A DNA stretch of 20,000 nucleotides from an uncultured virus (IMG/VR IMGVR_UViG_3300048861_000172) (lineage: Duplodnaviria > Heunggongvirae > Uroviricota > Caudoviricetes): the IMG/VR virus record IMGVR_UViG_3300048861_000172. One strand, given 5' to 3'. The notes under the pieces were generated by a model, which worked only from the letters and a program-made list of their open reading frames with translations, was not told the origin of the DNA and did not search any database. A program made the position numbers and the translations under genes. Of this stretch, positions 1 to 4,290 are shown piece by piece; positions within the stretch are counted from its first letter, which is position 1; every line of letters begins with the position of its first letter.

Positions 1-932
1 TCGCCTTCCGGAATGTCCTGACGGATCTTGTAATTTTCCAGACGCGAGTTCTTTTCCCCTTCGGGGCCATTGTCAAGCGGCTTATCCCGAATGTGATCCA
101 TGAAGGTGGCGTCAATGCCTGAGGTATTCAGGTTATAGACGTAGTTCCAGATGCTCGAGGCGATGCTTGCCTTCGGGTCCGGATTCTGCAAACCACCGGT
201 GGCCACCCGCCGCACCACCAAGATCCCCACCAACCACTCGTGGAAGTCTTCCATGCCGATACCTTCGAGCACAGCGGCGCGCTGCACCTTCTCGATCGGC
301 AAACTGGAGACGGCCCACGTTCTCAGCTTACGCATGGGAATGCTTTGCCATAACGGCGAGCGATCCAGCAGCTGATAGGCAAAATACTCTTTCCACACGT
401 TGCCATACGTGTTGGACGTATTGGCGATATACTCGCCCCAAATCGGCACCATCACCCGCAGACACAAAGCCATCGCGAGCAGCCACCTATAATCCTCACG
501 GAGATAGGTGCGCTCGGCGGTGCCCGGGTTGGTATGTGAATTTTCGAAACTCTCCTTAAAGGTCGATGGAATCTCGATCGTCGTCTTGAAACGAATCCAA
601 TAGTCGATCTCTTCCAACGGATGCATCTCGAGCAGCTTAGCCACTTGCAGGGCCAGCTTGCGGTTTTTCGCTCGATGATCGTCGGCGCTACCCAACGTCT
701 CCTTGATTGCGACGTACTGCTCGAAGATAGCGTCGAGCCGCTCGTCCGGCATTTCCGGGCGCGGTGCCCAGAATGCATTAATTTCCTGAAAGAGGTCGAA
801 CTCCTCGACGTCCTTCTTGTTCTTGCCACGCTTGAACGTGGAATAACTCCAGTTGATCGACTGATCCCGGTGCGTGAGTGTGGCTTGCACCGTGGAGCTT
901 CCTGCATCAACCCGATTAATGACCAGTTTCAC
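1..932 (-). CDS. Non-virion RNA polymerase promoter-specificity subunit, phiKZ gp68-like (5' part; runs off the left window edge)
   Basis: Manually translated, absent from the ORF track: GTG at 932 preceded by GAGGGGG RBS; open frame MKLVINRVDAGSSTVQATLTHRDQSINWSYSTFKRG...ERTYLREDYRWLLAMALCLRVMVPIWGEYI...SRLENYKIRQDIPEG with no stop to base 1. The TY..DY..L..LR...PIWGEY motif and position after the chmC-like gene match gp68 as I recall it. Confidence 0.8.
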   Translation of the reverse strand, partial: MKLVINRVDAGSSTVQATLTHRDQSINWSYSTFKRGKNKKDVEEFDLFQEINAFWAPRPEMPDERLDAIFEQYVAIKETLGSADDHRAKNRKLALQVAKLLEMHPLEEIDYWIRFKTTIEIPSTFKESFENSHTNPGTAERTYLREDYRWLLAMALCLRVMVPIWGEYIANTSNTYGNVWKEYFAYQLLDRSPLWQSIPMRKLRTWAVSSLPIEKVQRAAVLEGIGMEDFHEWLVGILVVRRVATGGLQNPDPKASIASSIWNYVYNLNTSGIDATFMDHIRDKPLDNGPEGEKNSRLENYKIRQDIPEG

Positions 933-979
933 CCGATCCCCCTCATTTAAACGAAAGATTCAACCACCGTCTCACATGG

Positions 980-989
980 GTGATATGTG
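980..989 (-). promoter_or_regulatory. Putative early phage promoter element CACATATCAC upstream of gp68-like gene
   Basis: Identical 10-mer recurs upstream of chmA (10290-10299); resembles the phiKZ early promoter consensus TATATTAC. Confidence 0.55.
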
Positions 990-1011
990 ACTGAATTTGT
1001 TTTCGTTTTAG

Positions 1012-1476
1012 TTACGCTGCTTCGTCTATCACAAGTCGGTGAGCAGCGTAGTGATGTAACCTACACAACCACACGACATCGAAAGGTTGATTGTAATCCG
1101 GATGATGCGCTTCCGGTTTTTGATCGCATTCGGGAATAGCACACACCGGCCAGGGAACAAGCCTGCCGTCTCGAATTGCATTATTCACAGCAACTGACGC
1201 TGCTTTACGCTTAGGATGCGTTTCTTCCCACTTACGCACCGAAGCATTGTGAGAGGCCTTGCCTGCTTCAGTCTGGATGTAACGTTTTTTGAGCGCCTTT
1301 CTTTCTGAAGTGACATCGCGTTCCCGATCGTACTCTTTGTAATGCTCAGAGTTCTTCTCGCGATTACTCCGTACTGTCTCCCGAACACAGTAGACGCACT
1401 TGTTACGATCAGACTTGTAGAATTCGCTGGGAGGACGCTCCTCCCAGCAGAACCTACACTCTCTGTCCGGCTCGAT
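1012..1476 (-). CDS. Free-standing HNH homing endonuclease with N-terminal Zn-finger (no canonical start codon)
   Basis: Frame of track ORF 1012..1239 stays open to 1476 and beyond: IEPDRECRFCWEERPPSEFYKSDRNKCVYC...VCAIPECDQKPEAHHPDYNQPFDVVWLCRLHHYAAH. CxxC..EFY..CxxC plus HHxDYxxPxxVxWLCxxHHxxxH are typical of phage HNH endonucleases; region is more AT-rich than its flanks. Confidence 0.8.
   Translation of the reverse strand: MEPDRECRFCWEERPPSEFYKSDRNKCVYCVRETVRSNREKNSEHYKEYDRERDVTSERKALKKRYIQTEAGKASHNASVRKWEETHPKRKAASVAVNNAIRDGRLVPWPVCAIPECDQKPEAHHPDYNQPFDVVWLCRLHHYAAHRLVIDEAA
1426..1448. other. Perfect 10-bp hairpin GCTGGGAGGA-cgc-TCCTCCCAGC inside the 5' end of the HNH frame
   Basis: Inverted repeat read directly; about 27 nt downstream of the chmC-like stop; no U-tract follows on the minus strand. 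Confidence 0.75.
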
Positions 1477-2216
1477 TAAAAAGGAATATCGTCGGTCGTG
1501 TCTTCATAACTGCCACCACCGCCTGCGTTACCGCCACCACCGCCACCGCCGTAGCTACGGCCACCACCACCGCCACCACCACGGTTGCCGCCACCGTAAC
1601 CGCCGCCTTCCTTCTTCTCAGCCTGATGGAACGGCTGCGTGGCGGCGATCACCTTGAGCATTTCGCCGACCGTGTCGAGGTAGCTCTTCACCCACATACG
1701 CGAGGCTTCTTCGTCGGTAATCGGGTTGCCTTGCGCGTCGATCAGGATGTTGAAGATCGTGTTGCCGAATTCGAACTTGATGCGCGGGGACTCTTTGTTC
1801 CAGTGCACCACCGAAATCCACACCACCCCGTTCTGGTCCTTGCCGACCCACACCGTGCCTTCGAGCATCGGTTCGTCCGACGGCTTGCCGTCCTTCCAAC
1901 GCGTCTCCTTGCACTGGTAGCCTTCTTTCCAGTCCTTGGGCGTATTGGGGTCGATCGCCTTGATGAGCAACTGCAAGATCACGCCAAACGCGTGCATCGG
2001 CAGCTTAAGCGACACCCGGCCACCATGGCGTTGGCTTTGATCGTTCGGGTTGTTCGAATACACGTTCAGTCGTGCCATGTTCGAGAAGAACTGCACCTGG
2101 AGCGTGGCCCACTTGCCCTGTGCACCCGGCGACGGTGCAGAGAGCTTGAGTTTCGGATTGTCCAGCGGATTTTTGTCACGCTGAGGGATGTTGCCGCCGT
2201 TGTTACCGTAAGCCAT
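1476..2216 (-). CDS. chmC: ChmC-like nucleus-associated nucleic-acid-binding protein (phiKZ gp67 position) with Gly-rich tail and SSB-like DDIPF C-terminus
   Basis: 246 aa; beta-rich core followed by GGGYGGGNRGGGGGGGRSYGGGGGG low-complexity tail; lies between gp66-like and gp68-like genes, the conserved location of ChmC; GAGG RBS. Confidence 0.65.
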   Translation of the reverse strand: MAYGNNGGNIPQRDKNPLDNPKLKLSAPSPGAQGKWATLQVQFFSNMARLNVYSNNPNDQSQRHGGRVSLKLPMHAFGVILQLLIKAIDPNTPKDWKEGYQCKETRWKDGKPSDEPMLEGTVWVGKDQNGVVWISVVHWNKESPRIKFEFGNTIFNILIDAQGNPITDEEASRMWVKSYLDTVGEMLKVIAATQPFHQAEKKEGGGYGGGNRGGGGGGGRSYGGGGGGGNAGGGGSYEDTTDDIPF

Positions 2217-2298: not shown

Positions 2299-3148
2299 AT
2301 GGAACGAGCATTGCACGTAGCTTTGCTTTGAAAAACGGATTCTTCAGTTGATCGATCCCGTAGCGGATCTTGTCCAGGGTTGTGGCTGCCGTCCACCGAT
2401 ATTGCTTGGCGATTTCCAATAATTCTTCACGCTGCTTAATCGGGTACGGCCGGAAGGTTTCCTTATCGCCGAGCACCTGAAGCAAGTCTTCACGAAAAGG
2501 CATCATGAAGAGATCCTTGCCATTCAGGTACTTGGTGTACCATTGCGCCTTTTCCTTGATGTGGCCGGTGTGGCTCTCCACGAGCACCAGCTCATGGAAG
2601 GCTTTTTCCGAGCACAGATCGATCGGATAGTGGGTTAAGATCAACGCTTTGCACTTCGCCTCGGGTTTGAGCTTCACATCAAAACCCAAGATACGTTTGG
2701 CTTGCGTCTTTTTGTCATGGTCGACCAGCAACTTAAGCGTTTCCTTCAGGAGCATGGTGTACTCCTTCTGGCGCACGGTTGTGTCGTACCGGGTGGTGGC
2801 CTGCGGATACCGGCGATCCAGATCCGCAAACGTGCACAGGTAAAACCGCACCTTGCAACGTCCACTGGTTAGCTCTGCAACAATCGACTCGATCTGGGCC
2901 ATTTCTTGATCGAGCGCTTCCGCACAGGGTCCAGGCATGAGTTGCGTGTCTTCCGCCTCACATGCGCCAACCAAGTTACGAAAGAGGGTGCGCAGATTGA
3001 CCCAGAACTCCTGATAGTCCAGAATCGGAGTTCGGTCATGTTTTAATTCGTCGTGGATATTGGCCGCGCTCTCCAGTGCCAAACTGGTCGCAATCGACAA
3101 CGGGTATTTGCCCAAGGCCCGGCCGGCCAAAATAGTGGAAGAGGACAT
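2297..3148 (-). CDS. Conserved jumbo-phage core protein (phiKZ gp66 position); possible degenerate PIN/5'-3' exonuclease fold
   Basis: 283 aa ORF coupled to the sbcD-like gene (TGATG overlap at 3148); motifs FWVNLRTLFRN, LILTHYPIDL, LVESHTG, LLQVLGD. Confidence 0.6.
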   Translation of the reverse strand: MSSSTILAGRALGKYPLSIATSLALESAANIHDELKHDRTPILDYQEFWVNLRTLFRNLVGACEAEDTQLMPGPCAEALDQEMAQIESIVAELTSGRCKVRFYLCTFADLDRRYPQATTRYDTTVRQKEYTMLLKETLKLLVDHDKKTQAKRILGFDVKLKPEAKCKALILTHYPIDLCSEKAFHELVLVESHTGHIKEKAQWYTKYLNGKDLFMMPFREDLLQVLGDKETFRPYPIKQREELLEIAKQYRWTAATTLDKIRYGIDQLKNPFFKAKLRAMLVP

Positions 3149-4290
3149 CAGATCACCTCACGCAAAATCTCCTCAGCCGCGTCGATCACATTCGTGCCAT
3201 GGACGGTGGCTAAGCGAATGCGGCTCATCACCTGCTCTTCAATGTTCTCCCGGGTAATGGTAATTGGGGTAAAGCCCAGATCCCGCTCGGGTGTCGCCAC
3301 CGGCTCGTTCTCTGCGTCTTTTAAGACTTCCCCGTTGAGGGTGACTTTCTCCTTAGTCCAATTAAAGTCTGGGTAATACTGCCTGAGTGTGTTCAAGTTG
3401 CCGATGAGTGGGTGACCCAACTCAAGCTCCAAGCGCATGAACGAACCCGTGGGGTAAGTGGCTAAGGCCTCTCTCACCTCCACCAACGCCTCTTCGACCG
3501 ACTGCCCGCCACAGCGGATCGTCTTAAAGATCTTGGCGCCTCTGTTCTCCACAAAGCGCATGGTGCTCTTGCCGTCTTTCACAACCGTACGGACATGCCC
3601 TTTGGCTTCTTCCTGACCATGGGTCAAGCGATCAAAGGAACCTTGGACAAAGATGCGGTCCTTGGTTTTGTACGTGTGATCGTGTCCAATCCAGATCCAG
3701 TGACGGACCAATTGGAGATATGCGTCCGAGTCATGCTTCGGTGCCGGAATATGCTCAGGCATCTGAAACTCGAACTGTCCATGCATGACGGCGTAATCGA
3801 CGTGGGTGAGTCCCCGGGCATCCATGAGACTGCGAATTTGGCTTAAGGTTTTTTCGGGCGGTCCCCACTCATCGGGTACGAACAGGAACCACTTATCGTA
3901 GTCCTGTTCGTACTCGATAGCGAGTTCTTTCACGTACTTGAGGTCGGCGCCAATTTTCGCAAACTCATTGATGGATGAAAACTGATTGGATTGCTTCCAG
4001 TCATGACTGGGCGTGCCTTCCAAGACACGCAACTTGATGCCGTGTTTAGCACACAGGCGCAACAAGTCAGCAATCCACTGCTCAGCTTCCATCACTGCTT
4101 CGTCGTTAAACTCGAGCAGGTCATCAAACACATCACCCGCTAAGATGATCATATCCAAGCGGGCGGTCTCTTCATTGTCAGGCAGCGCTCGGCGGAGATT
4201 ATCTACAATGTCCGCCGTCGGATTCTGTCGGTGCCCCAGATGAATATCGGAGAACACCGCGATCCGCAAATCAGAGTTCGTCGAAACCAT
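3148..4290 (-). CDS. sbcD: SbcD/Mre11-family metallophosphoesterase nuclease
   Basis: Calcineurin-like motifs SDIHLG, AGDVFD, EGTPSHD, MHGQF, GHDH, QGSFDR; 380 aa. Confidence 0.9.
   Translation of the reverse strand: MVSTNSDLRIAVFSDIHLGHRQNPTADIVDNLRRALPDNEETARLDMIILAGDVFDDLLEFNDEAVMEAEQWIADLLRLCAKHGIKLRVLEGTPSHDWKQSNQFSSINEFAKIGADLKYVKELAIEYEQDYDKWFLFVPDEWGPPEKTLSQIRSLMDARGLTHVDYAVMHGQFEFQMPEHIPAPKHDSDAYLQLVRHWIWIGHDHTYKTKDRIFVQGSFDRLTHGQEEAKGHVRTVVKDGKSTMRFVENRGAKIFKTIRCGGQSVEEALVEVREALATYPTGSFMRLELELGHPLIGNLNTLRQYYPDFNWTKEKVTLNGEVLKDAENEPVATPERDLGFTPITITRENIEEQVMSRIRLATVHGTNVIDAAEEILREVI

Follow-up and report, generated by a model that had tools for sequence, protein, structure and literature searches.

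A nuclease gene without a start codon behind a ChmC-like phage gene: family comparison suggests an orphaned homing element

How would a nuclease be made from a reading frame that is intact but has no start codon, and that opens in the -1 frame at the stop codon of a conserved phage gene? This question is raised by a 20,000-nt stretch of DNA from an uncultured tailed virus (IMG/VR IMGVR_UViG_3300048861_000172), referred to here as the window, in which the open reading frame (ORF) of an HNH-type nuclease lies directly behind a ChmC-like gene (Table 1; all coordinates are those of the minus strand of the window). The 3' end of the ChmC gene is GAT ATT CCT TTT TAA, and the junction is read in the nuclease frame as TCC TTT TTA ATC GAG. 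The nuclease frame is open from 1503 to 1015, with its stop codon at 1014-1012, and is -1 relative to ChmC. An earlier note on this DNA had pointed out the start-less frame at the ChmC stop and a perfect 10-bp hairpin 27 nt downstream. Both observations hold, with no ATG, GTG or TTG present before the GTG at 1239. The note had explained the arrangement by either a programmed frameshift or a coupled ATC start. From a comparison of the nuclease family with the ChmC family we lean, with modest confidence, to a different answer: a free-standing HNH-type homing endonuclease gene that is translationally orphaned and served by no programmed mechanism.

Table 1. Features at the ChmC/nuclease junction of the 20-kb window.
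Feature	Position	Strand	Basis
ChmC-like gene, 246 aa; N-terminal domain, Gly-rich linker, acidic C-terminal tip DDIPF	1476..2216	-	ORF list; phrog_3284
Codons GAC GAT ATT CCT TTT for the SSB-type tip DDIPF, where the nuclease family is proposed to land	1479..1493	-	sequence
ChmC stop codon TAA	1476..1478	-	sequence
Five-T run (last T of CCT, TTT, first T of TAA); proposed slip site	1478..1482	-	
TTA ATC in the nuclease frame, where relatives have TTG and ATG starts	1474..1479	-	family comparison
HNH-type nuclease ORF counted from ATC, 154 codons and stop	1012..1476	-	ORF list, homology, AF2 model
In-frame TGA, upstream limit of the nuclease frame	1504..1506	-	sequence
Strong stem-loop over the nuclease codons for CRFCWEERPPSEFY; interpreted as the ChmC 3' stem-loop	1416..1458	-	folding, inverted-repeat scan
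GTG, first canonical start in the nuclease frame; 75-aa product lacking the N-terminal Cys pairs	1237..1239	-	ORF list
79-nt spacer from the nuclease stop to the next gene; weaker AT-rich long hairpin, -17.8 kcal/mol over 80 nt	933..1011	-	
Next conserved gene, phrog_3209; 108-211 nt after ChmC in relatives	3..932	-	ORF list, phrog match

The nuclease frame matches phrog_2340 (annotated 'endonuclease') with an E value of 8e-37. For this family, 88 loci were examined, namely the best 80 of 486 IMG/VR relatives and 8 hand-picked from 515 phage records; 12 are exact duplicates, leaving 76 distinct loci. At 74 of the 76, an acidic tip followed by [IVLAT]PF stands at or near the end of the ORF just upstream of the nuclease (71 pass the criterion of an upstream ORF of at least 50 aa, and L031, L037 and L095 were added by motif); L027 and L092 do not fit. 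Beyond the IPF there is one more residue in seven loci and there are 10-22 more in nine. When the upstream ORFs were classified by Pfam, 27 of 72 were single-stranded DNA-binding proteins (SSB), one was RusA and 44 gave no Pfam match, some of them being cut by the flank. The genes upstream of the nuclease have the tail in common, not the fold, and ChmC adds another family to them. In Ralstonia phage NK-7, the best match in the phage database, the nuclease gene lies 9 nt behind an annotated SSB gene ending DDVPF. In Escherichia phage phiWec188 the upstream gene ends DEDIPF, and its junction, GAT ATT CCT TTT TGA TCA, is nearly identical to the GAT ATT CCT TTT TAA TCG of the window.

Phapecoctavirus-like phages offer a direct comparison of occupied and empty sites. 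Eight such records carry the nuclease, and others align both flanks over ~1,200 nt instead of 1,617. The empty allele in phage tuntematon reads ATT CCA TTC TGA TC, and the same site in phiWec188 reads ATT CCT TTT TGA TC and is followed by the nuclease gene, so that the family is polymorphic for presence and absence at one site in these phages. Around ChmC, none of 19 loci (18 from IMG/VR and that of Burkholderia phage FLC9) has a phrog_2340 nuclease within 2.5 kb, and the gap from ChmC to the next gene is 543 nt in the window versus 108-211 nt in 15 of 17 relatives. The window nuclease thus lies between conserved genes and is absent from the same site in relatives, as is characteristic of free-standing homing endonucleases. 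It is an insertion, probably a recent one, at the SSB-like tail of ChmC, and the family pattern fits a free-standing homing endonuclease with tail-coding DNA as its landing site. Such a family would appear to use the DNA for the SSB C-terminal tip as a landing pad, whatever protein bears the tip. Among the open-access papers and bioRxiv preprints searched, none was found that connects a homing nuclease with the SSB tail.

Several other observations were made at these loci. The SSB-type genes with a non-terminal IPF are those of L041, L043, L053, L060, L064, L080, L086, L096 and L100, and several of their extensions resemble A-[ND]-P-[YH]-[RK]-G...Y-x-[VIF]. In L039, L047, L050 and L057 a second (A)TACCTTTTTAA copy is found between the SSB stop and the nuclease start, just before the nuclease Shine-Dalgarno sequence and downstream of a TATAAT-like stretch; it resembles a remnant of a donor SSB tail that came along with the cassette. 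The nuclease copy of L053 (~922-940) has Arg in place of the second Cys of the first pair and may be decaying. In the slot between ChmC and the next gene, the two relatives that depart from the short gap, L004 (3185-3664) and L018 (3247-3561), hold other small ORFs, two in the former (one of 106 aa, its N-terminus signal-like, and one of 48 aa) and one of 104 aa in the latter. AT-rich third positions at the ChmC tail were also considered as a sign of co-conversion; the sign is weak, 3 of 17 genes being equally AT-rich in their last 11 codons.

The upstream gene was identified by homology and by its surroundings. Its product matches phrog_3284 (E 1.6e-43) and finds PHIKZ067 by tblastn (E 2e-9), phiKZ gp67 being ChmC (PMC11077065). 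The gene order around it is the same as in FLC9, the nearest isolate, with 38.5% identity. By sequence homology together with the conserved gene block, we assign it as a ChmC homologue. Megablast of the phage collection gave no close DNA relative of the window, single-protein scans of viral and metagenome contigs gave no close ChmC relatives, and the best ChmC homologue among 5.8 billion proteins is 43% identical; the phage represents a new chimallivirus-like lineage. The C-terminal consensus of 27 ChmC homologues is DDDxPF after a Gly-rich linker (the alignment of these 27 sequences was too diverse for a scan, and a narrower alignment was used), and phiKZ gp67 ends DEDMPSF. ChmC of the window's clade, ending DDIPF after the Gly-rich linker, resembles the C-terminal hexapeptide of SSB, DDDIPF (PMC5872125). 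ChmC is reported to have a Whirly-type RNA-binding domain and not an OB fold (PMC11077065). The accessible part of that paper makes no mention of SSB, and a ChmC family profile found no match among the PDB sequences. ChmC is reported among the most abundant early proteins (PMC11077065). Given that its tip is encoded by nearly the same letters as the tails in front of other phrog_2340 genes, the element would have landed behind ChmC.

The state of the start codon is what sets the window apart from the rest of the family. Homologues (29 sequences) mostly have Met 2-6 residues before the first Cys, which in the window is encoded by TGT at 1458-1456. In every one of the 76 relatives an ATG, GTG or TTG lies no more than 12 codons from this Cys, and in 75 no more than 8 (L080 starts with TTG at 12 codons; L053 has TTG at 6, with the second Cys lost). 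The window has no canonical start in the 15 open codons before the first Cys. The sole near-cognate start upstream of it is the ATC at 1476-1474, which shares its A with the ChmC TAA and stands 6 residues before the Cys; further upstream, the nuclease frame does no more than read the ChmC tail at -1. Within a more strictly chosen set of 54 loci, the start overlaps the upstream stop in 8, follows it by 0-10 nt in 28 and lies further away in 18, and is absent in none. At the position of the ATC, L024, L028, L040 and L102 have an ATG sharing its A with the upstream stop. At the position of the TTA, eight loci have an in-frame TTG overlapping TGA, which is the sole start in L020, L022, L023 and L026 and the annotated start in AV125, nepoznato and KIL1. 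It is noted that the deposited nuclease start of phiWec188 (L020 616-664) is an internal ATG after the first Cys pair, and that its sister phages start at the overlapping TTG.

The nearest relative, L028 (49% identity), has the identical 17-nt spacing from stop to Cys, with TTG ATG ... ATG where the window has TTA ATC ... AGA. A ChmC stop of TAA in place of TGA suffices to make the TTG a TTA; TAA is the stop in 16 of 17 ChmC relatives with a complete tail, L005 having TGA. Of 77 loci, only the window has no start, and at each of two positions it differs by one base from a family start. The earlier note had held that reads or close relatives with ATG at 1476-1474 would point to a sequencing error or a recent loss of the start. 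L028, the nearest found, does have ATG there, but at no more than 49% identity.

The same geometry invites the view that weak expression of the nuclease is intended: by termination-reinitiation, ribosomes finishing ChmC would restart at the AUC that overlaps its stop, or at the UUA next to it, which would hold a potentially harmful enzyme far below the level of the highly abundant ChmC. The ATC occupies a genuine family start position, coupling is common in the family (the overlapping and 0-10 nt classes, 8/54 and 28/54), and by its sequence the ORF seems fully functional. AUC is reported to initiate at ~1-2% of AUG in one reporter set, and near-cognate codons at 0.02-3% in another (bioRxiv 10.1101/063800), and expression of T4 mobE is thought to be limited likewise by a UAAUG overlap (PMC2988022). 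However, the reporter figures were obtained with a good ribosome-binding site (bioRxiv 10.1101/063800), and inspection of the sequence found no Shine-Dalgarno before the ATC. None of the 76 relatives has a non-canonical start, and several combine a strong Shine-Dalgarno with ATG, so that weak starts do not characterise the family. In addition, many transcripts may be terminated or blocked at the strong hairpin 17 nt downstream. Of the TAATG-type overlap proposed in the earlier note, the coupled geometry stands, with ATG or TTG present there in relatives, but the codons that now share bases with the ChmC stop are ATC and TTA, and the ATC is no more than a putative start. We regard deliberate restart as possible, but rather unlikely.

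Two further accounts of the missing start were also considered. Translation might begin at the first canonical start in frame, GTG 1239, so that only the 75-aa C-terminal piece is made. No Shine-Dalgarno was seen upstream of this GTG either, and the product would be without the two N-terminal Cys pairs and without the helical region, which are retained in all relatives; this account is extremely improbable. Alternatively, the junction might be an assembly or consensus artefact, or a minority variant, in a population that really has TGA/TTG or ATG. TTA and TTG differ by only one base, as do ATC and ATG, and the junction sequence is present in one public sample only (run X1), with no RNA sample listed as containing it. 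Over 1383-2300, Logan contigs of this run match the window exactly, at a word depth of ~12 and with no alternative letters listed. It should be mentioned that Logan contigs discard rare variants, and that run X1 is probably the source sample, so that the contigs count against an assembly slip and not as independent biological support. An artefact at the junction is considered highly improbable. The contigs of run X1 break on either side of a 31-nt stretch, 1352-1382, inside the nuclease ORF.

A further proposal is that tRNA-Phe slips by -1 on U UUU before the UAA in a programmed manner, giving a ~400-aa ChmC-nuclease fusion that would be carried to the phage nucleus. Full re-pairing is possible, UUU to UUU, followed by UUA AUC, and a newly arrived nuclease would presumably need a route into the phage nucleus. 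The preceding CCT is a rare Pro codon by the codon usage of the window, at 15 of 246 Pro codons (TTT makes up 83 of 201 Phe codons), so that CCT TTT is a rare pair in this phage. U_UU.U is one of six tetramers found to shift at 0.26-5.6% with a strong, closely placed pseudoknot stimulator; tetramers without a stimulator were barely above background, 0.147% vs 0.112% (PMC4066793). In the window the re-pairing tetramer U_UUU is present and no X_XXY_YYZ heptamer is found, and no stimulatory structure lies within a few nt of the slip motif, the stem beginning 17 nt (extended) or 27 nt (core) after the stop. In E. coli, termination at UAA is efficient when the next base is U, which counts against the slip. 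So does the need of SSB for a free C-terminal end in partner binding, and in the fusion the C-terminal Phe of the conserved DDIPF tip would be buried.

Comparison with relatives accounts for both the run of T and the frame. CCT TTT is the commonest Pro-Phe codon pair at the family junctions (21 of 75) and marks the nuclease-bearing allele in Phapecoctavirus; neither it nor the five-T run is found in the ChmC relatives. The frame of the nuclease relative to the upstream gene varies, being -1 in 21, 0 in 18 and +1 in 15 of 54 loci, and every relative has a canonical start, so that neither motif nor frame is conserved as a recoding site would be. The T-run and the -1 frame would thus have come with the family junction. 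No ChmC-nuclease fused form was found among 35 ChmC homologues, the longest of which has 321 aa, nor any nuclease relative of at least 287 aa, the latter being weak evidence.

The remaining support for a frameshift came from the hairpin. Its perfect 10-bp core pairs 1448-1439 with 1435-1426 around a loop at 1438-1436. With flanks included, the arms are 20 nt long (1458-1439 and 1435-1416) with 80% complementarity, forming the strongest short-loop inverted repeat of the window. Folding of 96 nt gives z = -3.7, with 0 of 200 shuffles folding as well; the best 44-nt window, 16 nt after the stop, reaches -26.9 kcal/mol, versus a mean of -14.2 and a minimum of -19.0 in the shuffles. Such a structure is found in ChmC relatives as well, 16 of 18 (~10 of 12 distinct groups) having a strong stem-loop ~2-40 nt after the stop, with energies of -21.6 to -34.0 kcal/mol in 44 nt that each beat all 30 of their own shuffles. 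phiKZ also has a stem-loop after its ChmC stop (L109 1376-1416). As the hairpin is present in nuclease-free ChmC relatives, it is accounted for without frameshift stimulation. We take the window hairpin to be the conserved ChmC 3' stem-loop, with a putative role as a terminator or 3' protector. No canonical intrinsic terminator was called at the window hairpin, which has no U-tract. The stem-loops after ChmC (L001-L019, phiKZ) likewise have no U-tract, and their sequence varies between groups.

A hairpin belonging to the nuclease family itself was tried as an alternative origin and found to be unsupported: a 36-nt window of -12 kcal/mol or lower occurs at this place in 10 of 72 loci, compared with up to 9 of 72 elsewhere. 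The window hairpin is the strongest among these 72 loci and overlies variable residues of the nuclease, between the first Cys pair and the conserved Phe-Tyr. L020, L022-L024 and L026 have a GGGGCT-GAAA-AGCCCC hairpin after the first Cys pair, coding G-A-E-K-P, at the same place as the window hairpin.

The programmed fusion put forward in the earlier note is thus not upheld, given a T-run that is common at family junctions, a frame that is variable, relatives with their own starts, and a hairpin that is explained as the ChmC stem-loop and lies 17-27 nt away; we consider it very unlikely. What looks like a recoding site can be accounted for in full once the family of the mobile gene and the family of its host gene are compared.

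Taken together, the observations suggest the following course of events for an orphaned homing nuclease. The phrog_2340 family would insert directly behind the stop of genes encoding an SSB-type acidic tip (D-D-x-I-P-F), and the element would have landed at the ChmC tip, which is the same in near-identical letters. The family start positions now read TTA and ATC, leaving no dedicated start. The T-run and the -1 frame would have been brought by the family junction, and the hairpin would be the ChmC stem-loop laid over the region of the first Cys pair of the nuclease. The nuclease would then be silent, or made in traces from non-programmed events, and neither a designed frameshift nor a designed ATC start would be involved. 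Meaningful translation of the nuclease is most likely lacking.

Several points weigh against this proposal. The ORF is free of decay, with no stops or frameshifts, which fits continued selection equally well as recent orphaning. ChmC is highly abundant (PMC11077065), and even 0.1-1% coupling to it could yield enough nuclease. No close relative was found (the best ChmC is 43% and the best nuclease 54% identical), so the ancestral junction is reconstructed from distant relatives, and we infer homing to tail-coding DNA from sequence comparison. In addition, the eight phage-database loci were chosen by the authors, some because their matches ran upstream of the start, and are biased accordingly; the 80 IMG/VR loci were not author-chosen. 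A further possibility is that the orphan is still delivered, a small share of ribosomes slipping by -1 to give the fusion or restarting at the AUC, with the ChmC stem-loop holding the ribosomes. There is, in our estimate, a small chance of this. If it were true, the association of ChmC with the shell would, in the fusion, carry a foreign homing nuclease to an otherwise unreachable phage nucleus, and homing among nucleus-forming phages would become open to an element of ordinary phages.

The protein encoded by the orphaned frame has the features of a nuclease of this type. Its top homologues are 51-54% identical, one of them being named HNH endonuclease in UniRef. All 18 invariant family columns are retained, and H133, H134, C147, H151 and H155 are invariant across 30 sequences; among 44 highly conserved columns the window protein differs in 4, and family members differ in 0-12. 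An AlphaFold2 (AF2) model of the 163-residue frame from 1503 (pLDDT 93.7) shows two Cys pairs near the N-terminus, then a helical region, and at the C-terminal end a beta-beta-alpha element at 131-162 (strands 131-133 and 144-146, helix 148-162). This element, with its conserved His and Cys/His ligands in the model and the alignment, is the hallmark of the HNH or beta-beta-alpha-metal nuclease superfamily. Pfam gave no family for the window nuclease at E values up to 1 and only chance-level rows for 30 family members, the PDB gave no sequence match, and Foldseek returned nothing at E <= 0.001. The top rows of VIA-align are HNH nucleases, although with weak scores (4h9d, Z 4.4, rmsd 4.8, 72 aligned; 5h0o, Z 4.0). 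The label 'HNH-type' is thus based on motif, fold element and annotation, and not on a curated profile. The third-position GC content of the nuclease ORF is 0.50, versus 0.62-0.81 for the genes of the window, which also speaks for its mobility. No group I intron or other RNA family was found by Rfam near the locus at E <= 1.

We have compared this arrangement with those of known systems. T4 mobE, which lies between nrdA and nrdB, is likewise a free-standing HNH gene that immediately follows a conserved and well-expressed one, its start position overlaps the upstream stop (UAAUGA), and it has a hairpin within its own 5' coding region, which is a terminator in mobE (PMC2988022). It relies on upstream promoters for its expression, which is presumed to stay low (PMC2988022). 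However, mobE has a real AUG, while in the window it is an AUC, preceded by UUA, that overlaps the stop; the window hairpin is without a U-tract, and the host gene is ChmC and not nrdA, so that the likeness is one of architecture. Closer in descent are the phrog_2340 genes of phiWec188, AV125 and nepoznato (Phapecoctavirus), Pseudomonas phages KIL1 and Amme-3, and Ralstonia phage NK-7, which are of the same family at 36-47% identity (tblastn). They too stand right after ...IPF-stop, with an almost identical junction, ATT CCT TTT T[G/A]A TC, and, in several, the -1 frame. In contrast to the window, they start with TTG overlapping TGA or with ATG, behind an SSB-type or unknown protein rather than ChmC. 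The frameshift sites of T7 gene 10A/10B and the tetramer sites of IS3/IS911 share with the window a U-run that allows re-pairing, placed where a gene ends at its 3' side, and an extended -1 frame. The window differs from them in having no heptamer, no stimulator at short spacing and no conservation in relatives, and the frame that follows is a whole gene, mobile in its own right, with relatives that each have a start.

What is new here is the non-canonical start state, a ChmC host gene in a nucleus-forming phage lineage, and the family link to the SSB-type tail. If the nuclease were active, the locus would represent a homing element from ordinary phages entering a nucleus-forming phage. The DDIPF tip and the conserved 3' stem-loop provide testable leads on the expression and the binding partners of ChmC. 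In the surrounding gene block, a calcineurin-like phosphoesterase of 380 aa (PF00149, E 6e-6) is encoded at 3148-4290 (-), two genes upstream of ChmC, in a gene order common to FLC9.

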